Shown in pieces: positions 27,524 to 54,082 of a DNA stretch of 64,000 nucleotides. This stretch comes from an uncultured Muribaculaceae bacterium. GTDB taxonomy: Bacteria; Bacillota_I; Bacilli_A; RF39; UBA660. How positions within the stretch are numbered: position 1 is the stretch's first letter; every line of letters begins with the position of its first letter. Made by a program: the position numbers and the translations under genes. Location: the NCBI GenBank assembly GCA_964587565.1, contig CAZPLK010000001.1:120088-184087 (forward strand). The letters run 5' to 3'. The notes below the pieces were generated by a model. The model made no database searches and was not told where the DNA came from. It saw only the letters and a program-made list of their open reading frames with translations.

Positions 27524-27599
27524 TTCGACAATTTTAAAAACAAAAATGTTTTTCTACTTTTGTCGAAAGCATATAAATAAAGTTAATATATGTTATATT
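27524..27599 (+). promoter_or_regulatory. Two candidate Spo0A boxes and a promoter upstream of a STAS-like gene
   Basis: TTCGACA (27524-27530, inverted) and TGTCGAA (27561-27567) match the 0A-box TGNCGAA. TGtTATATT extended -10 at 27591-27599. Confidence 0.4.
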
Positions 27600-27854: not shown

Positions 27855-27913
27855 ATCAAAATGATAACTCATAAAAGGGTTATCTTTTTAATAATATTAA
27901 AAGAGGTGATAGT

Positions 27914-28153
27914 ATGAAAATGATCGATAAAATGAGAACATATTTATTAGAAGAAGAATTTTGCATAAATATTTATAAAAACAAAATTAATATTATTAAT
28001 TATGAAAACATTGATCATTTTGATATTAATACTGTAATTATTAGATATAAGGAAGGTACAATAAAAATTAGCGGTAATAATTTAGTTGCATCAAAATTAT
28101 TAAATGATGAAATTTTAATAGTAGGAGACATTAAAAATATAGAATTGAGGTAA
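27914..28153 (+). CDS. yqfC: Sporulation protein YqfC
   Basis: 79 aa with the conserved ...IKISGNNLVASKLLNDEILIVGDIKNIEL C-terminus. Followed by yqfD. Confidence 0.8.
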   Translation: MKMIDKMRTYLLEEEFCINIYKNKINIINYENIDHFDINTVIIRYKEGTIKISGNNLVASKLLNDEILIVGDIKNIELR

Positions 28154-28158
28154 TTTAT

Positions 28159-29340: not shown

Positions 29341-29349
29341 AGGTAAATT

Positions 29350-29946
29350 ATGGAAAAAGCAATATTTATAAATTTATTTTCAAAAGTATGGCCTATGATA
29401 TTAATCTTTTCTGTTGTACTTGTATCCCTAAGATTAACTTATATATTAAAGCATAAAAAAAAGCTAATATTATACCAAGAACTATTTTATTTAGCATTTT
29501 TAATTTACATAATGCTTTTATTTCATATAGTCACCTTTAAAGATGTACCTTGGTCAACATCTAATTTTACACCATTTAAAGAAATTTTTAGGCACTCTTT
29601 TGGTAGTAAAGCATTTTATAGAAACGTTATAGGCAACATGGTTATGTTTATGCCATATGGTTTTTTTGTTTCATATTTTTTAAATTTAAGAAAACCTTAT
29701 ATTGTATTGTTTTTATCTTTAATTGTTTCTATTACAATTGAAACAACACAAATGATTATTGGACGAGTTTTTGATGTGGATGATATATTTTTAAATGTAA
29801 TAGGAGCACTATTTGGTTACTATATATATAAGAACTTTATGTATATAGTAAATAGACTTCCCCAATTCTTGAAAAAAGATTATATTTATAATATAATAAT
29901 CATATTGATAATTTTATTAGTTATGATCACATTTATAATAATATAG
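29350..29946 (+). CDS. VanZ-family membrane protein
   Basis: Four to five TM helices. NVIGNMVMFMPYGFF and ETTQMIIGRVFDVDDIFLNVIGALFG match VanZ-like motifs. Confidence 0.7.
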   Translation: MEKAIFINLFSKVWPMILIFSVVLVSLRLTYILKHKKKLILYQELFYLAFLIYIMLLFHIVTFKDVPWSTSNFTPFKEIFRHSFGSKAFYRNVIGNMVMFMPYGFFVSYFLNLRKPYIVLFLSLIVSITIETTQMIIGRVFDVDDIFLNVIGALFGYYIYKNFMYIVNRLPQFLKKDYIYNIIIILIILLVMITFIII

Positions 29947-29959
29947 TAAGGGTGAAAAC

Positions 29960-30406
29960 GTGAATAGTGTAGGGATGTTTAATGAAACAAAAGAAGAAAT
30001 TAAAGAAATGGAAGAAATAGAAAAACTAATTCATTACACGTTGAACAAAAAGAAACTAAAATACACTGTGTTTAATGTTATATTTGTAAATGATTTATTC
30101 ATAACTTCATTAAATCAAGATTACCGGGGACAAAACAAACCAACTGATGTAATATCATTTGCTTTGGAAGATGATTTGCCTCTAGATTTGGGCAAATACA
30201 GATTGCTAGGCGACATTTACATATCCGTAGACACTGCTAAGAGACAAGCTAACGAATACGGCCACAGCTTATTAAGAGAGTTATCATTTTTAACAATACA
30301 TGGTCTTTTACATTTGTTAGGATATGATCATAAAAATAAAGAAGAAGAAAAAATAATGTTTGAGAAACAGGAGTGGATTTTAGATGGATATGGAATTAAG
30401 AGATAA
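29960..30406 (+). CDS. ybeY: rRNA maturation endoribonuclease YbeY
   Basis: HGLLHLLGYDH zinc motif and PTDVISF. Confidence 0.9.
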   Translation: MNSVGMFNETKEEIKEMEEIEKLIHYTLNKKKLKYTVFNVIFVNDLFITSLNQDYRGQNKPTDVISFALEDDLPLDLGKYRLLGDIYISVDTAKRQANEYGHSLLRELSFLTIHGLLHLLGYDHKNKEEEKIMFEKQEWILDGYGIKR

Positions 30407-30791
30407 ACAAAAAAGAAGAGGATTTAAAAGATTTGTGAATAGTTTTAAATATTCATTTGATGGTCTTAAATATGCCTATAAACACGAGCAAAGTTTAACT
30501 ATACATTTTGGTGTTGCGATTATCGTAATCATTAGTGGTGTTGTTTTAAAGATAAGTTTAATGGAATGGTTATTATGTTTTATATTAATGGGATTAGTAA
30601 TGGCAACTGAGCTTATAAACACTTCTATTGAAGCAGTTATTGATTTAACTTGTCCGGAAATTCATCCGTTAGCTAAAATTGCTAAAGATACCGCATCAGC
30701 TGCTGTTTTTGTTTTTTCTATAGTTGCTTTTTTTAGTGGATTAATTATATTTGGTCCTAAAATCGCGCTATTAATTGAAAGTATAATTTAG
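30384..30791 (+). CDS. dgkA: Diacylglycerol/undecaprenol kinase DgkA
   Basis: 135 aa, 3 TM helices, ELINTSIEAVIDL motif. Confidence 0.85.
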   Translation: MDMELRDKQKRRGFKRFVNSFKYSFDGLKYAYKHEQSLTIHFGVAIIVIISGVVLKISLMEWLLCFILMGLVMATELINTSIEAVIDLTCPEIHPLAKIAKDTASAAVFVFSIVAFFSGLIIFGPKIALLIESII

Positions 30792-30800
30792 GAGGGTATT

Positions 30801-31184
30801 ATGGAAAAAAAATTAAAAAAAATATTAGAAAATGCTTATGCACCTTATTCAAACTATAAAGTTGCAGCGATCGTTGTGACAACAGATGGCAATCACTTTA
30901 GTGGTGTTAATGTTGAAAATGCATCATATGGTGCTACTATATGTGCAGAAAGAAATGCTATTAATAATGCTATAGCAAATGGATATAAAAAAGGAGATTT
31001 TAAAGAACTATATGTTATGGTAGCTAGTGATAAATTAGCATTTCCATGCAATATATGCCGACAAGTAATAGTTGAATTTTTTGATATGAATGATAAACTA
31101 TATTTAATAAATGAAGATTATAATGAAAGTTATTTAATGAGTGATATAATTGTTCATCCATTTTCAGTAGAGGATTTACAATGA
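30801..31184 (+). CDS. cdd: Cytidine deaminase
   Basis: CAERNAI and PCNICRQ zinc motifs. 127 aa. Confidence 0.9.
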   Translation: MEKKLKKILENAYAPYSNYKVAAIVVTTDGNHFSGVNVENASYGATICAERNAINNAIANGYKKGDFKELYVMVASDKLAFPCNICRQVIVEFFDMNDKLYLINEDYNESYLMSDIIVHPFSVEDLQ

Positions 31185-32065
31185 GATCCGGATTTATATC
31201 TGTTGTTGGACGCCCTAATGTTGGTAAATCAACTTTAATAAACAACATAATAGGTCATAAAGTAGCAATTACATCTAATAAACCTCAAACTACTAGAAAT
31301 ATTATCCACGGTATTTATAACGAAAAGGATCTTCAAATTGTTTTTTTAGACACTCCAGGCATTCATAAACCAAAACATAAATTAGGTGAATATTTAAATA
31401 AGCAAGCTTATTACAGCATGAATGATGTTGATGCCATAATAATGTTGGTTGATGCTAGTACGAGTTTGGGACCAGGTGATAAATTTATTATTGAATCATT
31501 AAAGGAGGTACAAACACCTGTTATTTTAGTTTTAAATAAAATTGACAAATTAAATAAAGAAGAATTATTGCCTATTATAGATAATTATAATAAATTGTAT
31601 AATTTTACTGAAATAATACCAGTATCAGCCTTAAAAAAAGAAAACATTAATAATTTAATAAATGTCTTAAAAAAATATTTAGTTGATAATATAAAATATT
31701 ATCCAGATAATCAATTGACAAACAGAACTACAGAATTTTTAGTTTCGGAAATAATTAGGGAAAAGGTTTTTAATTTAACGGAAGAAGAAATACCCCATTC
31801 TATTACATGTATCGTCGAACAAATTAAAAAAGATAAAAACAAATATATAATTAATGCTGTTATTATAGTAGATCGTGAATCATTGAAAAAAATCATAATA
31901 GGTAAGCAAGGAAAAATGATTAAAGCAATAGGTATACAAGCTAGAAAAGATATAGAAAAATTATTAGGTGAAAAAGTTTATTTAGAACTTTTCGTTAAAA
32001 CAGTTAAAAAGTGGCGCCAAAAAGAAAGGTATTTGTCAGAATTTGGATTTACTAATTTTGAATAA
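31181..32065 (+). CDS. era: GTPase Era
   Basis: GRPNVGKST, DTPG and NKID G-motifs plus a C-terminal KH domain (IIGKQGKMIK). Confidence 0.95.
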   Translation: MRSGFISVVGRPNVGKSTLINNIIGHKVAITSNKPQTTRNIIHGIYNEKDLQIVFLDTPGIHKPKHKLGEYLNKQAYYSMNDVDAIIMLVDASTSLGPGDKFIIESLKEVQTPVILVLNKIDKLNKEELLPIIDNYNKLYNFTEIIPVSALKKENINNLINVLKKYLVDNIKYYPDNQLTNRTTEFLVSEIIREKVFNLTEEEIPHSITCIVEQIKKDKNKYIINAVIIVDRESLKKIIIGKQGKMIKAIGIQARKDIEKLLGEKVYLELFVKTVKKWRQKERYLSEFGFTNFE

Positions 32066-32100
32066 TTAAAGTGGGAAATAATCATCATATTAATAAAGAG

Positions 32101-32217
32101 GTGATTATAATTAAAAAACAATTATTATGGAATTTGTTTAATAAAACAGGAAAAATCGAATATTACTTAAAATATAAAGAGGCTTTAAATGTTGATAACA
32201 AAAATAGGGAAACTTGA
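32101..32217 (+). CDS. yqzL: YqzL-like small protein (start uncertain)
   Basis: The unannotated frame ...KQLLWNLFNKTGKIEYYLKYKEAL... resembles YqzL (W..F..TG.IE.YL) and occupies the era-recO gap, as yqzL does in Bacillus. No ATG is present; the start may be GTG 32101 or a nearby ATT/ATA. Confidence 0.5.
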   Translation: MIIIKKQLLWNLFNKTGKIEYYLKYKEALNVDNKNRET

Positions 32218-32283
32218 AAATGCACAAATATTTTAAAAGCCAAAATATTGTCATTAATTAGTTTAAGTACTGGAGGTTTTATT

Positions 32284-33018
32284 ATGATAGAAAAAGTTGA
32301 AGGAATTATTGTAAGTGAAAGAAATTACAGTGAAAGTAGTAAAATACTAAATGTGCTTACTAAAAAACATGGTATGATTGGTGTCATTGCTAAAGGTTGT
32401 CGCACTATGAAAAGTGACTTAAGAAGTGTGAGTGAAAAATTAATATACGGCGATTTTAATTTATATTATAAACAAGATAAACTATCTACATTAATAAGTG
32501 TAGATGTTTTAAATAGTTTTAAAAACATGAGAAAAGATATAGTTAAAATAAGTTATGCATCTTTTTTGTTGGAACTATCTGAACAAGTGTATAGACAAAA
32601 TAATGATAAGCGTATATATGAATTACTAATTGCTAGTTTAATTAAAATAGAAGAAGGACTTGATCCTGTAGTTATAACAAATATTTTAGAATTAAAATAT
32701 TTAGATTTCTTAGGTGTGACCCCAATTTTAAATAGTTGTGCGGTATGTGGTACAACAAATTCAATCGTTAGTTTATCTATAATTAAAGGTGGTTATGTGT
32801 GTAAGAATTGTCAAACCACCGAAATTATTAATAGTAATAAGACAATTAAAATGATTAGAATGTTTTATTATGTTGATATATCTAAAATATCCAAAATAGA
32901 TATTAGTGATAAAGTGAAAAATGAAATAGATTTTTTCCTAAATGAATATTATGATGAATATACAGGTTTATATTTAAATGGTAAAGATTTTTTAAAAGAT
33001 TTATGTCAAATATGTTAA
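32284..33018 (+). CDS. recO: DNA repair protein RecO
   Basis: ATG 32284 follows a GGAGG SD. OB-fold N-terminus and a zinc motif (CAVCG...CKNC). Confidence 0.85.
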   Translation: MIEKVEGIIVSERNYSESSKILNVLTKKHGMIGVIAKGCRTMKSDLRSVSEKLIYGDFNLYYKQDKLSTLISVDVLNSFKNMRKDIVKISYASFLLELSEQVYRQNNDKRIYELLIASLIKIEEGLDPVVITNILELKYLDFLGVTPILNSCAVCGTTNSIVSLSIIKGGYVCKNCQTTEIINSNKTIKMIRMFYYVDISKISKIDISDKVKNEIDFFLNEYYDEYTGLYLNGKDFLKDLCQIC

Positions 33019-41117: not shown

Positions 41118-41155
41118 TCAAATTGTGTTATAATTTAATATATAGGAGTGACTTA

Positions 41156-42205
41156 ATGATGTGTAATAATAAAGGATTTACATTAATCGAATTATTAGCA
41201 GTAATAGTAATACTTGCAATCATCATGTTAATCACAACACCAACAGTATTAAATATAATAGAAAATGCAAGGGTCGAATCATTTAAAACATCCGTTTATG
41301 GAATAATAAACACTGTTGAACAAAGTTATGCCAAAGAAACTCTAACAAAATCTTTTCCAACGGTAGTAACATACATATATAAAAATGGGAAAGAGATATC
41401 TAGTAATAAAAAGGAGTTAAAATTTAAAGGCAAAAAACCTGAATCAGGAATGATTATAATAAATAATAATGGTGTAGTTTCATTAGCTTTATACAATAGA
41501 GTATATTGCGCAGTTAAAGATAGTACAACTAACGAGGTAGAGGTTGAAAAAACATCAAGTTCAGAGTGTGAGTTATCATATCCATGTGGGACTGATTTAT
41601 TTGATTTTCGGGATGGGGAATTATATAGAACACTAAAAATAGGAGATCAGTGTTGGATGGCCGAAGATTTAAGATATGATTGCTCCAAATCCGGGTATAA
41701 CAATATTGGTTCCGCAAATAGTTGGAGTGGAAGTAATAATTGTGGTGATGGCGAATATAATACAATTTTATACCAGTGGCCAGTTGCTATGGATGGAAGT
41801 ACAGAAGAGAGTTCACAGGGCTTATGTCCAAGTGGTTGGCATATACCTAGTGATGATGAGTGGAAAAAGTTGGAACAACATCTAGGTATGACAGTGGACG
41901 AAGTTAATAAACCAGATTGGAGAGGTAATGATCAAGGTGATCAATTAAAATCCCTTCAATATAATTGGTGTTTAGAAGCAAACAGTTGTGGCACTTCGGG
42001 ATTCGACGCTATGCCAGTGGGCGGAAGGCAAATAGATGGTAAGTTTTATAATGTAGATTCAACTAGTTATTGGTGGACATCCACCATTTCAGATACATCA
42101 GCCTGGGTAAGACGAATTAATAATATAAATACTAATATTTATAGAAACAATCCAACCCAATTGTATGGTAGAGGAGTGCGTTGCATTATAAATATAAATA
42201 ATTAA
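41156..42205 (+). CDS. Type IV pilin-like protein fused to a FISUMP (TIGR02145-like) lectin-fold domain
   Basis: Own TGtTATAAT promoter (41126-41134). Class III signal MMCNNKG|FTLIELLAVIVILAII with Glu at +5. C-terminal FRDGELYRTLKIGDQCWMAEDL...CPSGWHIPSDDEWKKL...YWWTST...GRGVRCI matches the Fibrobacter succinogenes major paralogous domain pattern. Confidence 0.75.
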   Translation: MMCNNKGFTLIELLAVIVILAIIMLITTPTVLNIIENARVESFKTSVYGIINTVEQSYAKETLTKSFPTVVTYIYKNGKEISSNKKELKFKGKKPESGMIIINNNGVVSLALYNRVYCAVKDSTTNEVEVEKTSSSECELSYPCGTDLFDFRDGELYRTLKIGDQCWMAEDLRYDCSKSGYNNIGSANSWSGSNNCGDGEYNTILYQWPVAMDGSTEESSQGLCPSGWHIPSDDEWKKLEQHLGMTVDEVNKPDWRGNDQGDQLKSLQYNWCLEANSCGTSGFDAMPVGGRQIDGKFYNVDSTSYWWTSTISDTSAWVRRINNINTNIYRNNPTQLYGRGVRCIININN

Positions 42206-42424: not shown

Positions 42425-43123
42425 ATGATTTTAAAATTTTTAAAAAAATTGTTTAAAGATTTTTATTTATTAACAGCATCATATTCAAATAAGGTTTTTC
42501 CAGAACCACTACCTAGGGATGAGGAAGCAATATACATTAAAAAAGCTAAAGAAGGAGATATGAATGCAAGAAGTAAATTAATAGAACACAACTTGCGTTT
42601 AGTAGCACACATAGTTAAAAAATATGATTATAACAGAGATGAATTAGATGATTTGATAAGTATTGGTACAATCGGACTTATAAAAGGAATTGATAGTTAC
42701 TCAGAAAAACACGGTACTAGAATAACTACATATTGTGCCAGATGTATAGAAAATGAAATACTAATGCATTTTAGAGGTGATAAGAAAAACAACAGAAATA
42801 TGAGTATTAATGAATCAATCGGATATGACAAAGATGGAAATGAAATTACTTTTTTAGATATTTTAAAAACACCTAAACCAGATTATGCTCTAGAAATTCA
42901 TAAAAAAGATAATATACAATTATTAAAAAAATATTTTAATGTATTAACTGAACGTGAACAAGATATAGTAATAAAAAGATATGGTTTAAATAATACAAAA
43001 GAAATAACACAAAAAGATATAGCAGAAGAACTAGGAATATCAAGAAGTTATGTTTCTAGAATAGAAAAAAGAGCGCTAACTAAAATTTTAAGAGAATTTT
43101 TAAAAAATGATATGGATATATAA
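42425..43123 (+). CDS. sigK: Pro-sigma-K, uninterrupted
   Basis: The pro-sequence junction ...LLTA|SYSNKVFPEPLPRDEE parallels B. subtilis ...FLV|SYVKNNAFPQPLSSSEE. Also IEHNLRLVAHIVKKY, ISIGTIGLIKG and GISRSYVSRIEKRAL. Confidence 0.85.
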   Translation: MILKFLKKLFKDFYLLTASYSNKVFPEPLPRDEEAIYIKKAKEGDMNARSKLIEHNLRLVAHIVKKYDYNRDELDDLISIGTIGLIKGIDSYSEKHGTRITTYCARCIENEILMHFRGDKKNNRNMSINESIGYDKDGNEITFLDILKTPKPDYALEIHKKDNIQLLKKYFNVLTEREQDIVIKRYGLNNTKEITQKDIAEELGISRSYVSRIEKRALTKILREFLKNDMDI

Positions 43124-43230: not shown

Positions 43231-43554
43231 ATGAATATACAATTTAAAAAAGGTGTATTAGAATTAATAGTGTTAGTATCAGTAAGTGAAAAGGATATGT
43301 ACGGCTATGAATTAATTGCACTCGTATCTGAAATAATAGATATAAACGAAGGAAGTATATATCCATTATTAAAAAGAATGACAAATGAAAAATATTTTGA
43401 TACTTATTTAGCAGAATCAAACGAGGGGCCACCTAGAAAGTATTATAAAATAACTAATCTTGGGAAAGAAAGAATGGTTGATTTAGTAGAAGCTTGGAAA
43501 ACATTTTCAACATCTGTTAATGCGTTTATAGAAGGGAGCAATATAAATGAATAA
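43231..43554 (+). CDS. PadR-family transcriptional regulator
   Basis: 107-aa winged helix. MYGYELI, GSIYPLLKRM and PRKYYKIT motifs. Confidence 0.85.
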   Translation: MNIQFKKGVLELIVLVSVSEKDMYGYELIALVSEIIDINEGSIYPLLKRMTNEKYFDTYLAESNEGPPRKYYKITNLGKERMVDLVEAWKTFSTSVNAFIEGSNINE

Positions 43555-44890
43555 AAAGCAATTTTTAAATATATTAAAAGAAAAATTATCAATCTTAAAT
43601 AAAGATGAAAAACAAGATATTATTAACGAATATAGTGACATAATCGATGAAAAAATTAAAAATGGAAAAAGTGTTAAAGAAGCTATAAATGATTTTGGAG
43701 ATATAGATGAATTAACAACAGAAATATTAAAAGCTTATAAAATAGATCCTAGTTATAATTCTTTCAAAAGTAAAGAAGAAATGGGTTTTTTTGAAGGTAT
43801 AGAAATAGCAATCAATGTTATTGCAACTAAAATGGCTGAAATAACCAAAAAAACAATTGAAAAAATTCAAAATTATGATAATGATATTACAATTGAAAAA
43901 GTATTTGAAATAATAATAAAATTTTTCATATTAATGATCATTATAATGATACTTAAAATACCTTTCCATATATTACAAGAAATAGGTATTGGGATTTTAC
44001 ATTTTGGAAATAATCCAATTTCACAAATGATTAAATTTTTATGGAAAACTTTTGTTTGGGCAATATACTTTATCTCTTGTTTTGTTTTATTATTTATATT
44101 TTTTAAAACTCAATTAGATAAATCAACTAATAATAACGAAGTGAAAATTCCAAAAGATTTAGAAATCAAAAAAAAAGAAAAAGAAAAACAACAACAAAAT
44201 AAAAAAGAATCATTTTTAAAAACAGTAGTAATCATATTTTTGACAGTACCAATAGTTTTAATAAATATACCCTTATATGTTGCACTATCTGTAATAATAT
44301 ACGCGTTAATTAAAGGCATTAGTATATATGGATTATTAATGGTATTTTTAGGCCTAATTATAATATTTAGTAATTTATATAATATGGTTATATCAATTTT
44401 CCACAATAAAAATAAAATATATTTGTTTCCCTATATAGTTGGAATGATATTAATTATAATTGGTAGTTTGTTCACATTTGAATATATAAATAAAATCACA
44501 TATTATGATAAATTGCCTGAAACAAACTTAACTATTGAAACGGATATATATAAAGATAAAATAAAAGGTAAATTAATAATTCAACATGATAACAGCAGAA
44601 CTACTTTAAAAGTTGATAATAGTATGAAGGATAATGAAATTAAAATAGTTACTAAATATTATGATGGCTATGTAGATTTTTCTAAAAATATATATTTTAA
44701 TGAAACTTCTAATATCGCGTATTTGAATTTTCATTATAAGGATACAAGCCCCAAATATAAAGATTTAATTCATGTAATAATTAATAACTTAAAAGATAAT
44801 AAAATATATAACTATTCTCAAATATATAAATTATTTGTTGAAGTACATGGTAATGATAATACATTAAAAAATGTAAAGGTGGATTGGTAA
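43547..44890 (+). CDS. DUF1700 (HAAS)-type membrane protein with an extended C-terminal extracytoplasmic domain
   Basis: N-terminal MNKKQFLNILKEKLSILNKDEKQDIINEYSDIIDEK matches the DUF1700 partner of PadR regulators. Several TM helices. Overlaps the padR stop. Confidence 0.7.
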   Translation: MNKKQFLNILKEKLSILNKDEKQDIINEYSDIIDEKIKNGKSVKEAINDFGDIDELTTEILKAYKIDPSYNSFKSKEEMGFFEGIEIAINVIATKMAEITKKTIEKIQNYDNDITIEKVFEIIIKFFILMIIIMILKIPFHILQEIGIGILHFGNNPISQMIKFLWKTFVWAIYFISCFVLLFIFFKTQLDKSTNNNEVKIPKDLEIKKKEKEKQQQNKKESFLKTVVIIFLTVPIVLINIPLYVALSVIIYALIKGISIYGLLMVFLGLIIIFSNLYNMVISIFHNKNKIYLFPYIVGMILIIIGSLFTFEYINKITYYDKLPETNLTIETDIYKDKIKGKLIIQHDNSRTTLKVDNSMKDNEIKIVTKYYDGYVDFSKNIYFNETSNIAYLNFHYKDTSPKYKDLIHVIINNLKDNKIYNYSQIYKLFVEVHGNDNTLKNVKVDW

Positions 44891-44955: not shown

Positions 44956-46482
44956 ATGAGAAGATTTTTAATGTTTATACTAATGATATTATTATTTAGA
45001 AATAATGTGAATGCAAAAGAAGAGGTGTATTATTCAGATTACAGTGATTTCGGAGAATATACTGAACAAAAAATATTGGGAAGTGATGTTATTGATGTTA
45101 AAGAAGTTTATAAATACAAGTATTATAAAGAAGTCAAAGAATTTGGCGATTATTATATAGAAGGGCATAACGAAGAACAATTTCCTTATATTGATAGAAG
45201 TGATTTTATAATTAGTGATTACACACCTTTTAGTGATGAAAAACCATTAGAAGAAAAGGGACGTGAGCTTAAAACAAGAAATGTTTATCATTATTCAAAT
45301 ATGAAAAAAATAAGATATATTCATTTAACAGACTTTTGGGGTACTCGTGATCAATTAAACATCAATGAAATTATTATAAGATCGAATAGTGAATATTTAC
45401 CATATAATTTATATTGCGAAGGATGCAGTGAAGGATTTTATGAAAAAGTTAGTAATAAAGAAGTCAAAACTGAAAATTCATATGTTTTACATGGTGGTTA
45501 CATTAGGATTGATTTAAGAAATTATTATGATTTATCTGATTTAGAAATTAGAATTTATATTACTGATTTAGGAACGAGTGAAAAAGGGTTTCAAATAAGC
45601 ACAAGTCGGGAACAAGATTTAAACCATAAAATTTTTAATACAATAAAGGAAAGGCAATTTTTCACTAATGAAAATATTTCCGATTTTAAAACTGTTGTTT
45701 ATAAACTTGATCAATTACAGTGGGTTGAACCAGAATGGGAAGAAACACTAAAAACTTACGACGAGATGCTTCCTTCAAGTACGAGAATGGTTGACAAAAA
45801 AGAAGAATATAGTTATAGAGATACTTACTATAAATATTATAATTTAAACAAAAAATATGCCGATGGTTATTATTTGGATTCGCCCATTGATTATCCTCTA
45901 AAAGATGTTGATTATAAAAAAACTTATTACCAATTCAGGGAAAGAGATAAAGTGGTAATTTCATCGTCAATTATTATAAGTGATAAAAACCAAAAATTGG
46001 AAGAGTTTATTATATCAAATTCAACAAATAAATATATAGTTAATAGTAATATAAACTATAATAAAAATGGTAAATATACTGCTTTATATGAATTCCCATT
46101 TATTACTGTAGAAAAGGAAATAATTGTCGATATTCCTAATAATCATAATGAAAACACCAAAAATATTAATACTAGTAAAGTTGTTAATCAAGAACTAAAA
46201 AATCTTAATAAAAATGAAGGAGGTAATCATACAAATAAAGTTAAATTACAAAATAAAGAAACCATCGATAATAATGAAATAAAAGTTAACATTCCAAGTA
46301 TTGAAAAAACAGATACAATAAACATAACAAAACCAATCGCTCAAACGAATGTAAAAGAACAATTAAAAATTGAAGATAAAGAAAAAGTAAATAAAAATTA
46401 TTTGTTAGTTCCATTGTCAATAATAATTATTATTACTGCAATACAAATAATAAAATTAAGCACAAATCAAAAAAAGTCGTAA
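44956..46482 (+). CDS. Secreted Tyr/Lys-rich surface protein with a C-terminal TM anchor, unknown family
   Basis: Signal peptide ending NVNA|KEE. C-terminal helix LLVPLSIIIIITAIQIIKL followed by a basic tail. Recurrent Y-x-Y-(K/R)-x-x-Y-Y-K motifs. Confidence 0.55.
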   Translation: MRRFLMFILMILLFRNNVNAKEEVYYSDYSDFGEYTEQKILGSDVIDVKEVYKYKYYKEVKEFGDYYIEGHNEEQFPYIDRSDFIISDYTPFSDEKPLEEKGRELKTRNVYHYSNMKKIRYIHLTDFWGTRDQLNINEIIIRSNSEYLPYNLYCEGCSEGFYEKVSNKEVKTENSYVLHGGYIRIDLRNYYDLSDLEIRIYITDLGTSEKGFQISTSREQDLNHKIFNTIKERQFFTNENISDFKTVVYKLDQLQWVEPEWEETLKTYDEMLPSSTRMVDKKEEYSYRDTYYKYYNLNKKYADGYYLDSPIDYPLKDVDYKKTYYQFRERDKVVISSSIIISDKNQKLEEFIISNSTNKYIVNSNINYNKNGKYTALYEFPFITVEKEIIVDIPNNHNENTKNINTSKVVNQELKNLNKNEGGNHTNKVKLQNKETIDNNEIKVNIPSIEKTDTINITKPIAQTNVKEQLKIEDKEKVNKNYLLVPLSIIIIITAIQIIKLSTNQKKS

Positions 46483-46497
46483 TAAATATAATTCTAG

Positions 46498-46528
46498 TTT
46501 TGTCGAAATTGTATAAGATTAATATGAT
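46498..46528 (+). promoter_or_regulatory. Candidate Spo0A box and promoter of the spoIIA-like operon
   Basis: TGTCGAA (46501-46507) sits within TTTTGTCGAAA, the same 11-mer found at 27558-27568. TTGTCG, 17-nt spacer, TATGAT (46523-46528). Confidence 0.45.
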
Positions 46529-46556
46529 GTGTGCTAAATTATTGTAACGAGGTGAT

Positions 46557-46952
46557 ATTATTTTAAATATTAGCACTGAATGCCATAAAGGCGTGTTTTT
46601 TGTAAGACTAATTGGTCAATTAACTAAAGATACTGTTACTAAACTAAATGATGAAGTTACAATGTTAGTTTTAGATAATGGTATTAAAAATGTAGTTTTT
46701 AACATCGAAAAATTAAAAGTAATTGATATGATTGGAATAAATGCATTATTGTATAATTATGAAATAATAAAAAACAATAAAGGATATGGTTGTTTGTGTG
46801 GGTTAGAAAATAATTTAGTAAGACAAAGAATAGAAAATAGCAGGTTATTAAAATATATGTATGAAACGAGCGATGAAATTGGTGCTTTAAATATAATTAA
46901 TTTACATAAGGAGCAAAGTTATGACAGAAAATATAACAGCAATAATCGATGA
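46557..46952 (+). CDS. spoIIAA: SpoIIAA-like STAS protein (anti-sigma-F antagonist homologue) lacking the phospho-serine
   Basis: Aligns by eye with B. subtilis SpoIIAA (VFFVRLIGQLTKDTVTKLNDEV vs [22 protein letters not shown]). The frame is open from 46548. The GAGGTGAT SD (46549-46556) suggests a non-ATG start (ATT 46557/46560); the track start GTG 46593 would truncate beta-1. Confidence 0.65.
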   Translation: MILNISTECHKGVFFVRLIGQLTKDTVTKLNDEVTMLVLDNGIKNVVFNIEKLKVIDMIGINALLYNYEIIKNNKGYGCLCGLENNLVRQRIENSRLLKYMYETSDEIGALNIINLHKEQSYDRKYNSNNR

Positions 46953-47589
46953 AAATAAAAATTTAATATACTCAATATCTCATTATTTTAAAAATTACCC
47001 TAATAAAGAAGACTTGTTTCAAGTAGGATGTATAGGGGTAATTAATGCATATAAAAATTTTAACAATAATTTAGGTGTTAAATTTACGACTTATGCATAT
47101 CCTTATATATTAGGTGAAATGAAAAGATATGTAAACTATGATCGTGGTATAAAAATTAGTAGAAAAATATTATCATTAAACTTGAGAATAGAAAAAGCAA
47201 AAGCATTATTAACACAAAAGCTTATGAGAGAGCCTACAATAGAAGAAGTTGCGAATTTTTTAAATGTTTCAGAAGATTTGATTATTCAATCATTAAATAG
47301 CATTTTAACTATAAATAGCTTTGATGAACCGATTACTGCTAGTGATGGTAAAGATTTAAATTTATATGATGTTGTAAGTTCGATTGATAATTTGGATTAT
47401 GATAGTTTAATAATGCTGAAAAAGGAACTAAACAAATTAAATGAATGTGACAAAAACATTATAAAAATGCGTTATTTTGATGATTTAACTCAAACTGAAA
47501 CAGCAAATATACTTGGAATAAATCAAGTTCAAGTTTCAAGAAAAGAACAAAAAATCTTACAAAAGTTAAGAACAGAACTTATTAATTAA
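46921..47589 (+). CDS. sigF: Sporulation sigma factor of the SigF/SigG family (SigF by synteny)
   Basis: DLFQVGCIGVINAYKNF, FTTYAYPYILGEMKRY and GINQVQVSRKEQKIL compare with B. subtilis DLFQIGCIGLLKS / GISQVQVSRLEKKIL. It lies between spoIIAA and spoVA. Confidence 0.8.
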   Translation: MTENITAIIDENKNLIYSISHYFKNYPNKEDLFQVGCIGVINAYKNFNNNLGVKFTTYAYPYILGEMKRYVNYDRGIKISRKILSLNLRIEKAKALLTQKLMREPTIEEVANFLNVSEDLIIQSLNSILTINSFDEPITASDGKDLNLYDVVSSIDNLDYDSLIMLKKELNKLNECDKNIIKMRYFDDLTQTETANILGINQVQVSRKEQKILQKLRTELIN

Positions 47590-47613
47590 AACTACTTATT
47601 AAAGTAGTTTTTT
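47589..47613 (+). terminator. Rho-independent terminator after sigF
   Basis: AAACTACTT-atta-AAGTAGTTT followed by TTT. Confidence 0.65.
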
Positions 47614-47642
47614 GTATATTAAAAATTATATATTACATAATA
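47614..47642 (+). promoter_or_regulatory. SigmaG/F-type forespore promoter of the spoVA operon
   Basis: GTATA (47614-47618), 17-nt spacer, CATAATA (47636-47642). This fits the sigmaG consensus GHATR-N17/18-CATxHTA. Confidence 0.55.
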
Positions 47643-47658
47643 ATATTGGAGGTAATTT

Positions 47659-48099
47659 ATGGAGAAAAAACAGTATAAACAAATAGTCGATAACAATACA
47701 CCAATGGAAAACAGACTATATAATGGAATGGTAGCTTTTATTGTCGGTGGTTTTATGGGAGCGATAGGGGAATTATTAATCCAGATTTATTCTTATTTTT
47801 TTAACATATCCAGTTCCGAAGCTTCTGTGTTAATGATTATGACACTTATATTTTTAGGATGCTTGTTTACTGCTTTAGGTTTTTTTGATAATTTAGTTAA
47901 TTTCGCCAAAGCAGGATTAATTATACCGATAACAGGTTTCGCCCATGCTACTATGAGTGCAGCGTTAGAACATAGGGAAGAAGGGTTAGTTACTGGAGTA
48001 GGTGCTAATATATTTAAATTATCTGGTACTGTAATTGTGTTTGGTATTGTTAGTGCTTATATTGTAGGACTAATTAGATTAATGTTTTTAGGAGGATAA
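47659..48099 (+). CDS. spoVAC: Stage V sporulation protein AC
   Basis: 146 aa, 4 TM helices, conserved PITGFAHA and GANIFKL motifs. Confidence 0.85.
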   Translation: MEKKQYKQIVDNNTPMENRLYNGMVAFIVGGFMGAIGELLIQIYSYFFNISSSEASVLMIMTLIFLGCLFTALGFFDNLVNFAKAGLIIPITGFAHATMSAALEHREEGLVTGVGANIFKLSGTVIVFGIVSAYIVGLIRLMFLGG

Positions 48100-48100
48100 T

Positions 48101-49087
48101 ATGACTTTTACATATAAAAATGTATATATAAATGATGTTAGTACAATTGTAGGCCCTTATGAAAAAAAAGGACCAATTGGAAATTTATTTGATAAATATT
48201 ACGATGATTTGTATTTTGGTGAAAAAACATGGGAACAAGCAGAAGTGAAATTAATTGTTGAAAGTGTTGAATTATTATTAAAAAAATTAAATAAAAATAA
48301 ACTAGATATTGATGTACATTTGTCTGGTGATTTGTTAAATCAAATTGTAGCAACAAATTATGCCTCGGCAAAATTAGGTATTCCATTACTAGGGCTTTAT
48401 AGTGCTTGTGCAACTAGTGTTGAGGCTCTTATTATAGGAGCAAATATGATTGAATCAAGCCAAATTAATAATTGTATTTGTAGTGTTTCTTCTCATAATA
48501 ATGCAGCGGAAAAACAATTTAGATATCCTATTGAATATGGTGGTCCTAAACCAAAAACAGCAACTTTTACAACAACTGGTTGTGCTAGTGCATATTTAAG
48601 TAAACAACTAAAAGGTATAAAAATAGAAAGTGGCACGATTGGTACTGTTAGTGAGTTAGGTATTACTGATCCTTATCATATGGGTGCTATTATGGCTTCA
48701 TCAGCAGGTGATACAATAAATAAGCATTTAAATGATTTAAATAGAACCTTTGATTATTACGATTTAATTATTACAGGAGATTTAGGAAAGTATGGTTCAA
48801 AAATTTTAATAGATTATATGAAAACGAAATACGGTATTAATTTAACTAATCATCAAGATGCTGGTGTTATGATATACGATTTAAAAACACAACCCGTTTA
48901 CTCTGGTGGAAGTGGGACAGCGTGTGCCCCGTTAGTAACATATACACATGTTTTTAAACTAATGCAAAAAAAGGAAATCAAAAAAGTATTATTAGTTGCA
49001 ACAGGTGCATTACTATCATCGACAATGGCTTTACAAAAACTTGGAATACCATCAATATCACACGCAATTAGTTTGGAGGTATTGTAA
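48101..49087 (+). CDS. spoVAD: Stage V sporulation protein AD (thiolase-like fold)
   Basis: 328 aa. YFGEKTWEQAE, GLYSACATS and SGGSGTACAP motifs typical of SpoVAD. Confidence 0.85.
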   Translation: MTFTYKNVYINDVSTIVGPYEKKGPIGNLFDKYYDDLYFGEKTWEQAEVKLIVESVELLLKKLNKNKLDIDVHLSGDLLNQIVATNYASAKLGIPLLGLYSACATSVEALIIGANMIESSQINNCICSVSSHNNAAEKQFRYPIEYGGPKPKTATFTTTGCASAYLSKQLKGIKIESGTIGTVSELGITDPYHMGAIMASSAGDTINKHLNDLNRTFDYYDLIITGDLGKYGSKILIDYMKTKYGINLTNHQDAGVMIYDLKTQPVYSGGSGTACAPLVTYTHVFKLMQKKEIKKVLLVATGALLSSTMALQKLGIPSISHAISLEVL

Positions 49088-49437
49088 TGATATACATAAA
49101 TGCATTTATATTTTGTGGAACAATTTGTTTAATTGGACAAATAATTTTAGACAACACTAAATTAACACCAGGCCACGTTACTGCTATTTTAGTTACAATT
49201 GGTACCTTTCTTGATTTATTCCACATATACGATCGCTTTGTATTGTGGGCAGGTGGTGGGGCATTAGTACCAATAACTAGTTTTGGTCATTTATTAATTC
49301 ATGGAGCACTAGCTAAAGCTAGCAACCTTGGACCGATGGGGTTAGTAATGGGGATGTTTGATTTAACAGCCGCTGGAATTGTTTCAGTAATCTTTTTCTC
49401 TTTTATATTAGCTTTAATATTTAAACCTAAAGATTAA
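49087..49437 (+). CDS. spoVAEb: Stage V sporulation protein AE(b)
   Basis: 116 aa, 3-4 TM helices, GGGALVPITSFGH motif. ATGA-type coupling to spoVAD. Confidence 0.8.
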   Translation: MIYINAFIFCGTICLIGQIILDNTKLTPGHVTAILVTIGTFLDLFHIYDRFVLWAGGGALVPITSFGHLLIHGALAKASNLGPMGLVMGMFDLTAAGIVSVIFFSFILALIFKPKD

Positions 49438-49479
49438 AAATGTAAATATGCTTTAAAAATGATTTTAAATGGTGATAAT

Positions 49480-52344
49480 ATGAAGAAAAATAATAAAAAA
49501 GCATTTACATTAGTAGAGTTATTAGCAGTAATATTTATTATTGGCATTTTATCTGTAATTACTATACCTACCATTAACAAATTAACTTTGCAAAGTAAAG
49601 AACAATTATATAAAAATCAAATAGATAACATAAAACATGGTGCTAAAAACTGGGCTGCTAGTAATTTTTACATGTTGCCAGAAAGTGAAGGAGAACAAAT
49701 TACACTTACATTAGGACAGTTACAAATAGGAGGATTTGTTGCATCTGATATTAAAGATCCGAGAAATAAAAAACCATTTCCAAGAGATATGGAAATAATA
49801 ATCAAAAGAATTATGAATAGTTATCGCTATGAAGTAATAGAAGGTAGTGGTGGTGAAAATGGTAACTTAGATTTTGATTCTCCAACTATAATTTTAAATG
49901 GTTCAGCTCATGAAATTGTGGAAATTAATACAAATTATGTTGAAAAAGGTGCACTAGCAAAAGATCCAAGTGGTAGTCTAATAGATGATATTAATATTTT
50001 AATTCAATCTAACAATAAAGAAGTAGATAAAGTAGATACTAGTAAATTAGTACAATATAAAATAACTTATAGTGCTGTTTATAATAATAATACGGCAACT
50101 GCAATAAGAACAGTTACTATTAAAGATACAATACCCCCGAATTTAAATGTACCTGGTAATATAATAATATCATCCGATGAGGTATTAAATTACGATTTTA
50201 TGGAAGGGGTTAGTGCAACAGATAACTCTCTTGAAAATGTAAATATTACAATAAAAGGAACAGTAAGTGTACTTCCAGGAAAGTACTTGCTAACTTATAT
50301 TGCGACAGATTCATCTTCCAATAAAACAGAAAAAACAAGGCACATTACAGTAGTAAGTGCTACATATCCAACAATATCAATAATAGGTAGTAGTATAGTA
50401 AATATAAATGTGGAAGAACCATATAAAGACATGGGAGCAACTGCTAGTGATTTATTAGATGGTGATTTAACTAATAAAATTATTGTTAGTGGTACAGTTA
50501 ATGTTAATATACCTGGAAATTATAATATTACTTATGAAGTTACTAATAGCATAGGTAAAACTACAACTGTAATAAGGGAAGTAAAAGTAATTGATAATAT
50601 ACCACCTGTTATAGTTTTTGGGACAAATGGAAACAGTACTTATGCAAGAAATTATAATACCAAAATAACAGTAAATGATATACATTCATTGGTAAATAAA
50701 AATTCACTAAAATATTTATGGTCAACAACTACTACAACTCCTAGTGAAAGTTCTTTTACTAATAAATTCACAAGTGGTGATATAATATCAACGCCAAATG
50801 ATTTAAGTGGTAGTTATTATTTATGGATAATAGCAAAAGACACCGTTGGGAATACTGCAATTAAAAGAACAAATGCATTTAACTTGGATAATACTAATCC
50901 TAGTGTTACAAACATAGTTAGTAATGTAACAAATATAACAGAAACAGGTTTTACTATAACAAGAAGCGGAAATGCAACTGATGCCCATAGTGGATTAGCT
51001 AGCATTCCATATATGTATCAAATAAGTACAAACAATGTAAGTTGGATTACAAATTGTACTAGTAGTGCTACAACTTGTGTTGTAACTGGGTTAGACCTTG
51101 AAACAAAATACTATTATAGAATATGTGCATCGGATAAAGTTGGTAATCAATCGTGTGTAGCAAGTAAAAACACTACAACCGAAGGCGGTGATTATAGTAT
51201 TGTTAAAAACGTTAACAGACCAGTATTGTTGCCAGGTATGACGCCAATTAAATGGAATGGTATGACAGAGGTGATTACTACTACAAATGATACATCTTGG
51301 TATGATTATACTAATAAAATGTGGGCTAATGCAAAAACAAAAGACGGATCTTATTGGGTGTGGGTACCAAGATATGCATATCAAATTTCAAGTGGTTATC
51401 ATACTAAAAGTGCTGGTAATATAAATATAAAATTTTTACAAGGTAATACTAATGTTGCATCTGATAATACAACAGTGGCAACAACCCCTACTTATAGTGG
51501 TTCTAGGCAAACTAATTATATAAGACATCCCGCTTTCCAATTTGGAACAGAAGAAATCCTAGGATTTTGGGTAGCAAAATTCGAACCAAGTGGTACTTTA
51601 AGCAATATAAATATTTTACCAAACGCATCAACATTAACAAATATAAATGTTAAAGATATGTTTAATGCAAGTTTAAATATGAAATCCAATTCAAAGTATG
51701 GTTGGGGTACCAATACTGTTGATACCCACATGGCTAAAAATACAGAATGGGGAGCAATAGCTTATTTAAGTAAATCCATATATGGGGCGAATAGTGAAGT
51801 GTGGATTAATAATAGTAACAATTATACGACTGGTTGTGCTGGAAGTAGTATATCAGCTAGTAGTTATTCTGGTTGTCAAAACGCTTATAATACAACAATT
51901 GGTGTTAGAGCTAGTACAACACATAATATATATGGTGTGTACGATATGAGTGGTGGCGCGAATGAATATGTAACAGGAAATTTAAATCGTACAACAGCAA
52001 GTAGTGGTTTTTCTATAACTGAACTTAGAGGAATAGATTCAAAGTATATTGATGTATATAGTGGTTATAATAGTACGATATTTGGTGATGCTATTTATGA
52101 AACGAGTTTAACTCAAAAAATGAGTGATTTTGGCAATGCTAACAAATTAAATGAATCATGGCACAATCAGAGATCAACTTTAATCGGTACTTATAGTATA
52201 GCTGGAAGAAGTATATCAGCACCATGGTATATTAGAGGTGATGATTATGCGGGGAGAGAATTAGCAGGATTATTTTCATTTAGACCCGATGCTGGAAATG
52301 CTTCATCAAGTTATTCTTTTAGACCAATAGCAATACCTCAATAA
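49480..52344 (+). CDS. 954-aa modular type IV pilin-like protein (pilin module, 3 Ig-like DUF5011-type repeats, Fn3-like domain, FGE/SUMF1-like lectin-fold domain)
   Basis: ATG 49480 follows a GGTGA SD. Class III signal MKKNNKKA|FTLVELLAVIFIIGIL. Repeats of the P.I.L.G....pY.d.Ga.A.D..dG.l...I...G.V....pG.Y.itY...D..gN pattern, DxHSGL Fn3-like segment. The C-terminus has GFWVAKFEPS...NTEWGAIAYL...GVYDMSGGANEYV...WYIRGDD...SFRP. Confidence 0.7.
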   Translation: MKKNNKKAFTLVELLAVIFIIGILSVITIPTINKLTLQSKEQLYKNQIDNIKHGAKNWAASNFYMLPESEGEQITLTLGQLQIGGFVASDIKDPRNKKPFPRDMEIIIKRIMNSYRYEVIEGSGGENGNLDFDSPTIILNGSAHEIVEINTNYVEKGALAKDPSGSLIDDINILIQSNNKEVDKVDTSKLVQYKITYSAVYNNNTATAIRTVTIKDTIPPNLNVPGNIIISSDEVLNYDFMEGVSATDNSLENVNITIKGTVSVLPGKYLLTYIATDSSSNKTEKTRHITVVSATYPTISIIGSSIVNINVEEPYKDMGATASDLLDGDLTNKIIVSGTVNVNIPGNYNITYEVTNSIGKTTTVIREVKVIDNIPPVIVFGTNGNSTYARNYNTKITVNDIHSLVNKNSLKYLWSTTTTTPSESSFTNKFTSGDIISTPNDLSGSYYLWIIAKDTVGNTAIKRTNAFNLDNTNPSVTNIVSNVTNITETGFTITRSGNATDAHSGLASIPYMYQISTNNVSWITNCTSSATTCVVTGLDLETKYYYRICASDKVGNQSCVASKNTTTEGGDYSIVKNVNRPVLLPGMTPIKWNGMTEVITTTNDTSWYDYTNKMWANAKTKDGSYWVWVPRYAYQISSGYHTKSAGNINIKFLQGNTNVASDNTTVATTPTYSGSRQTNYIRHPAFQFGTEEILGFWVAKFEPSGTLSNINILPNASTLTNINVKDMFNASLNMKSNSKYGWGTNTVDTHMAKNTEWGAIAYLSKSIYGANSEVWINNSNNYTTGCAGSSISASSYSGCQNAYNTTIGVRASTTHNIYGVYDMSGGANEYVTGNLNRTTASSGFSITELRGIDSKYIDVYSGYNSTIFGDAIYETSLTQKMSDFGNANKLNESWHNQRSTLIGTYSIAGRSISAPWYIRGDDYAGRELAGLFSFRPDAGNASSSYSFRPIAIPQ

Positions 52345-52417: not shown

Positions 52418-54082
52418 ATGATTCAAAATAAAAACAAAGGTTTTACATTGATCGAATTATTAAGTGTAATTGTAGTTTTTGTTATTATAATGCTTATAGT
52501 AAGTCCAGTAGTTATAAACATAATAAAAAGTGCTAATAAAGGTGCTTTTAAAAACAGTGTTAACGGGATAGTGAAAAGTGCTATATTAGAACAATCTAAA
52601 AATGTATTAACCGGTAAAGAAGTGAATGAACTTATTTTTACATATGAAAACGGTGTTGAAAAATCAAATATTATTGGGGCAAAACTTAATTATAAAGGTA
52701 AAAGTCCAAGTGAAGGTGTTATTATTGTCAATAAAAAAGGACAAGTTTCACTTGCTCTTTTCGATTCAATGTGTGCTATTAAATCATTCGAAGGCAATGT
52801 GGAAATTAAACCAAATAGTAAAGAAGATTGTCAATTAAAATTATTAATACCTACTATTGAATTAATTGGAAATAATACAATAGATATAGAAATAAATACT
52901 AAATATGAAGAACTAGGTGTAATTGCAAAAAAATATAACGGAGATGTTATTAAAAATGTTGATATTAAAATTAAATATAATGGCATAATACAAAAAACTG
53001 TTGATACTAGTAAATTAGGAACATATGAATTAATATATTCAGTACAAGAAGATAATCAAAGGGTAGAGATATTAAGAATTATACATATTGTAGATACAAT
53101 CCCTCCTGTTTTAAACATTCCAAAAGATATAGTTATTGACATCAAAAATTTTAATGATTTTGATTTTATGGATGGTGTTAGTGCCACGGATAATAGCAAT
53201 GAAAAAATTAATATAATTACAACTAGTAACATTGTTCCAATACCAGGTAATTATTATATTAAATATGAAGCATTTGATTCATCAGGGAACAAAACGGAAA
53301 AGATAAGGCAAATTAACATAATAGATACAACACCACCTAATATAAATAAATTAGTTATATCAACTAAAAATGTAACATCTAATTCATTTGTCATTATAAT
53401 GGAAGGAGAAGTTTTTGACGAACACAGTGACTTAGCACAAAAACCATTTATTTATCAAACAAGTACTGATAACGTTAATTGGCAAACAAAATGTACAACA
53501 AGTAATAAAGATTGTTTAGTTGAAAATTTAAATAATAACACAACATATTATTACCGTTTATGTGTCATAGATATATATGATAATAAAGCGTGTTCTAATA
53601 ATAAAAGTATAACAACTAGTAATCCGCTTTATTACTACGATAAATATAGGGTAGGTATTAATTACTATAATTACCGAAATCCTTCATCAAATTTTTCTTA
53701 TAGTTATACAACATCTGAAAAATCATTATCAAGTGGTAGTACCATATCAATTGCAGGTACAACGAGTTATGGTTTTAATAGTACATCTGGTTTTTATGGT
53801 ACTGGCTCATCTGTAACATTGACTCAATCAACAATTTCAAACGGATATACTAGATACTATGCAAGCGGAAGTTCAATTTCACAACATAAAATAGTTAATA
53901 AAAGAACATCAGGCTCAACAGTATATTGGAAAGAAGAAGTTTATGTTATGAGTTGTCAATATGATACAAGTTATACGAGAGGAGCGTTTATAGAAACTGT
54001 GACAGCTATTACTGGTCAGTATCCTAATAACGGTAGACATACAGATGGTTATTGGTATGTCAGAAGAGAATTGGTTAGTTAA
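52418..54082 (+). CDS. 554-aa modular type IV pilin-like protein (pilin module, 2 Ig-like repeats, Fn3-like domain, Tyr/Ser/Gly-rich C-terminal domain)
   Basis: Class III signal MIQNKNKG|FTLIELLSVIVVFVII. The pilin module is paralogous to 41156-42205 (LNYKGKSPSEGVIIVNKKGQVSLALF vs LKFKGKKPESGMIIINNNGVVSLALY). The Ig/Fn3 part is paralogous to 49480-52344 (DFMDGVSATDNS / DFMEGVSATDNS). Confidence 0.7.
   Translation: MIQNKNKGFTLIELLSVIVVFVIIMLIVSPVVINIIKSANKGAFKNSVNGIVKSAILEQSKNVLTGKEVNELIFTYENGVEKSNIIGAKLNYKGKSPSEGVIIVNKKGQVSLALFDSMCAIKSFEGNVEIKPNSKEDCQLKLLIPTIELIGNNTIDIEINTKYEELGVIAKKYNGDVIKNVDIKIKYNGIIQKTVDTSKLGTYELIYSVQEDNQRVEILRIIHIVDTIPPVLNIPKDIVIDIKNFNDFDFMDGVSATDNSNEKINIITTSNIVPIPGNYYIKYEAFDSSGNKTEKIRQINIIDTTPPNINKLVISTKNVTSNSFVIIMEGEVFDEHSDLAQKPFIYQTSTDNVNWQTKCTTSNKDCLVENLNNNTTYYYRLCVIDIYDNKACSNNKSITTSNPLYYYDKYRVGINYYNYRNPSSNFSYSYTTSEKSLSSGSTISIAGTTSYGFNSTSGFYGTGSSVTLTQSTISNGYTRYYASGSSISQHKIVNKRTSGSTVYWKEEVYVMSCQYDTSYTRGAFIETVTAITGQYPNNGRHTDGYWYVRRELVS

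Follow-up and report, generated by a model that had tools for sequence, protein, structure and literature searches.

A streamlined spoIIA (σF) operon in a bacterium related to order RF39

The restriction of σF activity to the forespore is, in the textbook account, the work of a phosphorylation-based switch formed by SpoIIAA, SpoIIAB, and SpoIIE. To our knowledge, these three proteins are treated as near-universal among endospore formers. For the σF of Mycobacterium tuberculosis, RsfA serves as a non-phosphorylated STAS antagonist of UsfX, and switching takes place without phosphorylation by the anti-sigma factor. The locus considered here is a spoIIA (σF) operon in streamlined form, carried by a bacterium related to order RF39 and located in a 64-kb stretch of AT-rich DNA (26.9% GC) that was analyzed in full and is hereafter called the window. 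It consists of a spoIIAA-like STAS gene that runs into a σF-type sigma gene, contains no spoIIAB, and encodes a STAS protein devoid of the phospho-acceptor serine. In this lineage, σF is very probably no longer under the control of phosphorylation-driven partner switching.

The STAS-σF gene pair and its distribution

From 46.5 to 49.4 kb of the window, five genes follow one another on the same strand: the STAS open reading frame (ORF), the sigma ORF, and then spoVAC, spoVAD, and spoVAE (Table 1). The STAS frame is open from 46548 to its stop codon at 46950–46952; it shares 32 nt with the sigma gene, and nothing codable lies in between. An initial annotation of this DNA had described the 32-nt overlap and the lack of a spoIIAB gene between the two, both of which are borne out by the ORF map.

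A sigma-family scan of a genome collection yielded 80 species-level loci, all from metagenome-assembled genomes labeled Bacilli, Mollicutes, or Tenericutes. Those that could be placed belong to the GTDB order RF39, with Candidatus Faecisoma and Candidatus Coprovivens among them (PMC8035907). The σF proteins of the nearest relatives are just 67% identical to that of the window. In 79 of the 80 species loci, STAS abuts a short sigma gene without a kinase gene, and the spacing from STAS stop to sigma start is between −32 and +14 nt in 72 of these 79, an arrangement that suggests translational coupling of the two genes. The spoVAC-spoVAD-spoVAE genes lie 3′ of the operon in approximately 50 of 81 loci. 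The kinase-less STAS-σF pair is a clade trait and not a local accident. Turicibacter sanguinis, a related spore former of the Bacilli, has SpoIIAA, SpoIIAB, and σF in the canonical set of three (PMC13492147), which makes the RF39 state a derived one. The sole exception among the 80 loci (L084, 6000–10500) has a short σF-type gene with no upstream STAS gene, its neighbor being a divergently oriented 350-aa ORF; it may reflect additional reduction or belong to another lineage.

The upstream ORF has a Pfam STAS match (5.6e-11) and stands at the head of the operon, directly 5′ of and overlapping the σF-type gene. Its top NCBIfam models are “anti-sigma factor antagonist” and “spore_II_AA”, each under its cut-off; with the SpoIIAA equivalog TIGR02886, the score is 46.4 bits and does not reach the required 114.75. 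A family profile made from 45 relatives and run against the PDB retrieves the SpoIIAA proteins of Geobacillus stearothermophilus (1TH8_B, 4.6e-20) and Bacillus subtilis (1AUZ, 2.1e-19), while the first match to a protein other than SpoIIAA follows at 3.4e-07. The AlphaFold2 (AF2) model, based on a 52-sequence alignment, attains a predicted local distance difference test score of 95. Its top Foldseek match is 1THN_B, a SpoIIAA chain from the SpoIIAA-SpoIIAB crystal structures, with template modeling (TM) scores of 0.79/0.89 and a root-mean-square deviation of 1.5 Å. Weaker matches include transporter STAS domains and MlaB, and the UsfX-RsfB complex 8IH8 was also matched. The STAS protein is a SpoIIAA descendant, by sequence and by structure.

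The downstream ORF contains sigma regions 2, 3, and 4 according to Pfam. Its NCBIfam matches rank in the order spore_sigF, SigB/F/G, SigF/SigG, and then SigG and SigB. The first two are both under their cut-offs, with spore_sigF (TIGR02885) scoring 195.5 bits against a threshold of 321.45. For a sigma profile built from 26 family members, the best PDB match is σF (1L0O_C, 1.8e-57), with σB following at 1.6e-40. The deficit of about 30 N-terminal residues relative to canonical σF, proposed in the initial annotation, holds, as the clade profile aligns to G. stearothermophilus σF from residue 31 of the latter onward. The sigma protein is genuinely short because the ORF, whose frame is closed 8 codons 5′ of the ATG, cannot be extended past 46897. 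More than 1400 sigma homologues were retrieved, and the best 120 of them are 213–232 aa long.

Separate sigma genes of canonical length lie 6–10 kb away from the pair in two relatives, L055 (15775–16575) and L046 (19983–20627). The L055 protein scores 374 bits with the SigG equivalog NF006071 and so passes its threshold of 372, and the L046 copy is cut by the end of the locus. An assignment of the short sigma as SigG was rejected, since the relatives have a distinct SigG that passes its own cut-off; the short protein is therefore the σF counterpart. SigG keeps its canonical length while σF has diverged strongly and become shorter, such that the two forespore sigmas evolve at very different rates.

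The failure of both proteins to reach the NCBIfam equivalog cut-offs would also be expected of a paralogous, non-sporulation STAS-sigma module that coexists with a canonical spoIIAA-spoIIAB-sigF operon elsewhere, and the searches cover the window and the loci. Such a paralogue is nevertheless highly improbable. The best sequence and structure matches are SpoIIAA and σF, well before RsbV and σB; the pair resides in spoIIA-spoVA synteny and carries a Spo0A box; and the only other σF/G-like gene seen in the relatives is SigG. A survey of sporulation genes, furthermore, describes spoIIAB as reduced or absent in RF39 (PMC10868615).

The phospho-acceptor site and the search for SpoIIAB

In the 117-aa SpoIIAA of B. 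subtilis, which provides the numbering used below, the phospho-site motif is D57-S58-S59-G60, and its counterpart in the window protein is D56-M57-I58-G59. In the profile alignment to the SpoIIAA proteins of the PDB, IDMIGI of the window faces MDSSGL, and the profile consensus reads iDlkGi. The variant chain 1TID_B has MDASGL where the wild-type 1TH8_B has MDSSGL; because the residue altered is the first serine past Asp57, this serine is Ser58. The initial annotation, which had equated Ser57 with Met and Ser58 with Ile, was thus one off in its numbering (Ser58 corresponds to Met and Ser59 to Ile) but correct in that neither residue is Ser or Thr. Helix α2 of the AF2 model begins at residue 57, the place of Ser58 in SpoIIAA.

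Among 79 distinct RF39 STAS proteins, Asp57 is found in 79 and Gly60 in 78, while position 59 is mostly Lys (50) or Tyr (17). Position 58 is occupied by I (26), M (16), C (13), V (6), L (6), N (3), Y (2), D (2), K (2), R (1), S (1), and Q (1), with I, M, C, V, or L in 67 of the 79. An alignment of relatives had been set as a check on the original observation; it places no Ser or Thr at the phospho-site of the window and finds Ser at position 58 in only 1 of the 79 proteins. When 1.84 billion cluster representatives were searched exhaustively with HMMER, 271 related clusters were returned. In the best 150 of these 271, position 58 holds 16 different residues, including Ser in 19 and Thr in 4 (23 of 150), and the Ser/Thr carriers are dispersed among nearest neighbors that lack Ser. 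Free variation with scattered Ser and Thr is the pattern expected if no kinase acts at this position. The phospho-acceptor is lost, and position 58 is an unconstrained site.

The former kinase-docking loop, with Asp57, Gly60, a neighboring Ile, and the GIN motif, ranks with the best-conserved parts of the STAS protein, and its position 58 is hydrophobic. Ratios of nonsynonymous to synonymous substitution rates (dN/dS) of the STAS gene range from 0.01 to 0.16; they were taken from close species pairs only, because synonymous sites are saturated in distant AT-rich pairs and the corresponding values are meaningless. Purifying selection on STAS is strong and, together with the conserved docking loop, implies that the protein still binds something.

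The SpoIIAB sequences of B. subtilis and G. stearothermophilus were used as phmmer --max queries; the former matches PDB SpoIIAB at 2e-68. Neither gave a SpoIIAB or HATPase_c match below E = 0.29 among the 4947 ORFs of the window and 84 loci, the latter reaching ±10 kb. No SpoIIAB-like ORF is present within ±10 kb in any of the species loci or in the 64-kb window, and no anti-sigma-like gene is found among the conserved neighbors around the loci. A Pfam scan of the eight largest window ORFs (554–1144 aa) detected no PP2C domain. The 2024 survey, which is based on KEGG orthologues, reports a lower occurrence or total lack of both spoIIAB and spoIIE in RF39 (PMC10868615). Based on this survey, and with the present searches covering ±10 kb and 64 kb, SpoIIAB is probably absent genome-wide. 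The initial annotation had considered the loss of the kinase gene and that of its target serine mutually consistent and had argued that, barring partners encoded elsewhere, σF is controlled otherwise than in the textbook cycle; both losses are seen clade-wide and, along with the survey, lend support to these two propositions.

The main alternative, somewhat less probable than the scheme favored below, is one in which a diverged, kinase-dead SpoIIAB-like anti-sigma factor persists elsewhere in the genome and the non-phosphorylatable STAS protein acts as its antagonist through abundance, turnover, or another signal, in the manner of RsfA and UsfX of M. tuberculosis. In its favor, the Asp57/Gly60/Ile/GIN docking loop is among the most conserved features although Ser58 is gone. 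Loss of SpoIIAB is toxic in B. subtilis, as established by genetics, an indication that some inhibitor of σF is needed. Diverged proteins can escape KEGG-orthologue assignment, and the wording of the survey does not extend to every genome (PMC10868615). On the other hand, neither the ±10 kb around the pair in 80 species nor the 64-kb window contains a candidate, and the conserved neighbors include no anti-sigma-like gene. The canonical gene, moreover, sits between spoIIAA and sigF, such that its relocation would require a new promoter.

Initiation, transcription signals, and genomic surroundings

The STAS gene was suspected in the initial annotation to use a non-ATG start, and this start is ATT 46560. 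The relatives' STAS genes start 11 codons before the position of GTG 46593, with ATG (46), TTG (22), or GTG (4), whereas ATT at the equivalent codon is found in the window and in four related species (L005, L006, L007, and L010). Non-ATG starts amount to 41% of the STAS genes of the clade overall. ATT 46560 stands 4 nt after the Shine-Dalgarno sequence GAGGTGAT and aligns with the ATG/TTG/GTG codons of the relatives. In the AF2 model, strand β1 is confidently predicted and spans residues 2–9 counted from the ATT. Because the starts of relatives, GAGGTGAT, and β1 agree, the protein is assigned 130 residues. The start chosen by the gene caller, GTG 46593 (119 aa, P0271), was rejected, as it lacks a Shine-Dalgarno sequence and its use would remove β1. 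An antisense ORF over the 5′ end of the STAS gene is conserved in 51 loci and is taken as a by-product of sense-strand conservation.

The aligned upstream regions of 77 loci share the order TCTAGTTTTGTCGAA - GTATAA - TGTGCTAAATTA - GAGGTGAT - start. An exact TGTCGAA, which we take to be a 0A box on the basis of the established B. subtilis consensus, precedes the STAS start in 71 of the 77 loci at a distance of 53–79 nt, nearly always 57–60 nt. Expression of the σF operon may depend on Spo0A. The window contains two copies of TTTGTCGAA, compared to 0.47 expected, and a GTCGAA is located approximately 25 nt 5′ of the main box in many relatives. TGTGCTAAATTA is almost invariant across the loci; if this block is an extended −10 element, the 0A box would lie near −43, and the transcription start is predicted near 46547. 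The 14 sites reported by a generic σ70 scan do not exceed chance in 27% GC DNA, where 11.7 are expected; as such a scan is uninformative in AT-rich sequence, the promoter assignment is based on cross-species conservation.

A hairpin with a T-run occurs in most relatives at the place equivalent to 47588–47613 of the window, where the terminator scan missed the hairpin because its stem has fewer than three G-C pairs. Usually right after this terminator, the pattern G[ACT]AT[AG]-N17/18-CA[ACT][AT][ACT]TA is found 5′ of spoVAC in 45 of 51 loci; it presumably represents the σF/σG promoter consensus known from B. subtilis work. Forespore promoter specificity thus looks canonical despite the divergent σF.

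Table 1. Coordinates of the elements of the operon and of the adjoining spoVA genes in the window
Feature	Position	Strand	Basis and remarks
Possible second, imperfect Spo0A-like half site AGTCGTAA	46475..46482	+	Putative; weak in the window
Perfect Spo0A box TTTGTCGAA within conserved block TCTAGTTTTGTCGAA	46499..46507	+	Conservation and B. subtilis consensus
Conserved GTATAA block between 0A box and −10 region	46511..46516	+	In most of the 77 upstream regions
TGTGC-TAAATT, putative extended −10 (TRTGn + TAAATT)	46530..46540	+	Conservation and Gram-positive TRTGn consensus
Shine-Dalgarno sequence of the STAS gene, GAGGTGAT	46549..46556	+	Near-universal among loci, 3–4 nt 5′ of the start codon
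spoIIAA-like STAS gene, 130 aa, ATT start	46560..46952	+	Pfam STAS, SpoIIAA profile, AF2, Foldseek
Shine-Dalgarno sequence AAGGAG of the sigma gene, within the STAS coding region	46908..46913	+	7 nt before the ATG, read from the sequence
σF-type sigma gene, 222 aa, ATG start	46921..47589	+	Pfam regions 2, 3, and 4; NCBIfam; PDB profile match
Weak intrinsic terminator, 10-bp hairpin and U-rich tract	47588..47613	+	Free energy (ΔG) −8.4 kcal/mol, z = −2.9
Putative forespore-type (σF/σG) promoter GTATA-N17-CATAATA for spoVA	47614..47642	+	Predicted function
spoVAC	47659–48099	+	Pfam and NCBIfam
spoVAD	48101–49087	+	Pfam and NCBIfam
spoVAE	49087–49437	+	Pfam and NCBIfam

In addition to the genes of Table 1, the window encodes a pro-σK-like sigma factor, yqfC, and yqfD, and at the sequence level the developmental cascade appears to be otherwise intact. 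These genes bear on whether the STAS protein has been co-opted away from σF control or whether the module in its entirety is left over from a sporulation pathway that has ceased to yield spores. RF39 genomes are reduced and come from uncultured organisms for which sporulation is unproven, and STAS domains bind varied partners, in keeping with the transporter STAS and MlaB matches noted above. A machine-learning study scores RF39 genomes as non-sporulating, with a sporulation probability of 0% (PMC12536801). Co-option or decay is nonetheless improbable given the strong purifying selection on STAS, a STAS-sigma coupling that is invariable in 79 species, the conserved Spo0A box, the conserved forespore promoter on spoVA, and the further sporulation genes (pro-σK, yqfC/yqfD, and spoVA) of the window. 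RF39 sequence variants were also among the few taxa passed to chicks together with spore formers (PMC7028958).

The SigK-type gene (42425–43123) is intact, scores above the cut-off of NF004471 with 296 bits, and has an N-terminal extension that resembles a pro-sequence. It is followed by genes for a PadR regulator (43231–43554) and a HAAS-domain membrane protein (43547–44890), both of which recur near the operon in relatives. The next gene (44956–46482) encodes a 508-aa protein that has a signal-like N-terminus and a hydrophobic anchor at its C-terminus but matches no Pfam family; in 47 of 81 loci, a homologue is situated directly 5′ of the STAS and sigma genes. The other exact TTTGTCGAA of the window, at 27559–27567, lies approximately 300 nt 5′ of yqfC (YabP family) and yqfD (stage IV sporulation). 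These two genes and the ensuing VanZ, ybeY, dgkA, cdd, era, and recO (27875–33018) resemble the yqfC-recO region of Bacillus. Three large proteins (41123–42205, 49459–52344, and 52418–54082) have a prepilin-type N-terminal methylation motif and carry Fib_succ_major or bacterial Ig-like surface domains; they are pseudopilin-like and flank the sporulation genes.

The window sequence is found in 5 DNA/other metagenome runs, mostly from bioreactors and digesters, and none of these is an RNA run. The segment 44900–49500 is near-complete in two bioreactor runs of one study and partial (5–10% of sampled words) in one run each from an anaerobic digester and from soil. Whereas the RF39 genomes are mostly gut-derived, the organism is thus a relative from an engineered ecosystem.

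Control of σF without a kinase and comparison with known systems

The observations above can be accommodated by a scheme in which a Spo0A-box promoter would drive a two-gene message that encodes the SpoIIAA descendant and then the coupled, N-terminally shortened σF. The terminator would end this operon, leaving spoVA to be transcribed from its own forespore-type promoter. With spoIIAB deleted from the operon and the target serine replaced, the STAS protein would act without phosphorylation, directly on σF or on the σF-RNA polymerase complex, and would serve as a holder or release factor produced stoichiometrically alongside. Spo0A-dependent transcription would provide the timing, and the ratio of STAS to σF may be set by weak, often non-ATG initiation of the STAS gene.

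Direct, phosphorylation-independent action of STAS on σF is favored, if tentatively, because STAS is co-encoded and coupled with σF and has no other identified partner. In this scheme, STAS would bind σF directly. It is a bolder and rather doubtful proposition that the four-part switch of SpoIIAA, SpoIIAB, SpoIIE, and σF has collapsed in RF39 to a two-protein module free of ATP and phosphorylation. Several points speak against direct control. Common descent alone explains the adjacency of the STAS and sigma genes. The Asp57/Gly60 loop is the SpoIIAB-docking surface, and a surviving SpoIIAB-like partner, which could have been missed by a KEGG-orthologue survey if diverged and encoded elsewhere in the genome, fits its conservation equally well. 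No fusion of STAS to a sigma domain occurs among the best 150 of the 271 STAS clusters (64–141 aa) or among the best 120 of the more than 1400 sigma homologues. We know of no observation of sporulation in RF39, and the 0% prediction cited above points in the same direction. Predictors that rely on spoIIAB, however, call RF39 non-sporulating, and that call may be wrong.

Were direct control by STAS true, forespore-specific σF activity in an endospore or derived program would be achieved by a mechanism unseen in the spore formers studied thus far. An order-level lineage retains most of the cascade, namely the Spo0A box, the sigma factors σF, σG, and pro-σK, and the genes spoVA and yqfC/yqfD, without the kinase or the phospho-site, and its antagonist is still under selection. 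This constitutes a natural experiment on the minimal needs of compartment-specific σF activation, and the case bears on the capabilities of a STAS protein that has lost its kinase. The reduction or absence of spoIIAB and spoIIE in RF39 has already been reported, while the anatomy of the operon and its degenerate phospho-site seem to be undescribed; a literature search on the question of σF in RF39 found no paper on an operon of these two genes, on the degeneration of the phospho-site, or on the shortening of σF.

The STAS domains of MlaB and of SulP/SLC26 transporters share the fold of the RF39 protein and are purely protein-binding, with no phospho-switch. Their partners (an ABC ATPase, the transporter, and acyl carrier protein) are unrelated and have no sigma link, and their similarity to the RF39 protein is far below that of SpoIIAA. 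The UsfX-RsfA/RsfB system of M. tuberculosis embodies the same phosphorylation-independent idea, and the UsfX-RsfB structure 8IH8 is among the Foldseek matches. Unlike the RF39 pair, for which the window and loci searches reveal no anti-sigma factor of this type, M. tuberculosis keeps the SpoIIAB-fold anti-sigma factor UsfX, and its system is not one of sporulation.

The spoIIA operon of B. subtilis and Geobacillus harbors the closest sequence and structure relatives of both proteins. It differs from the present operon in that (i) it includes spoIIAB, (ii) it encodes a SpoIIAA with Ser58, which is replaced by Met in the window and by Ile, Met, Cys, Val, or Leu in most relatives, and (iii) its σF has about 30 additional N-terminal residues, with both RF39 proteins being under the equivalog cut-offs. 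Furthermore, (iv) spoIIE is reduced or absent in RF39 according to the survey (PMC10868615), and (v) the promoter of the window is probably of the extended −10 σA type rather than the σH type. The two operons are alike in the upstream Spo0A box, the sporulation context, and the forespore-type promoter before spoVA, and the location of spoVA 3′ of the spoIIA operon is shared with the clostridia.

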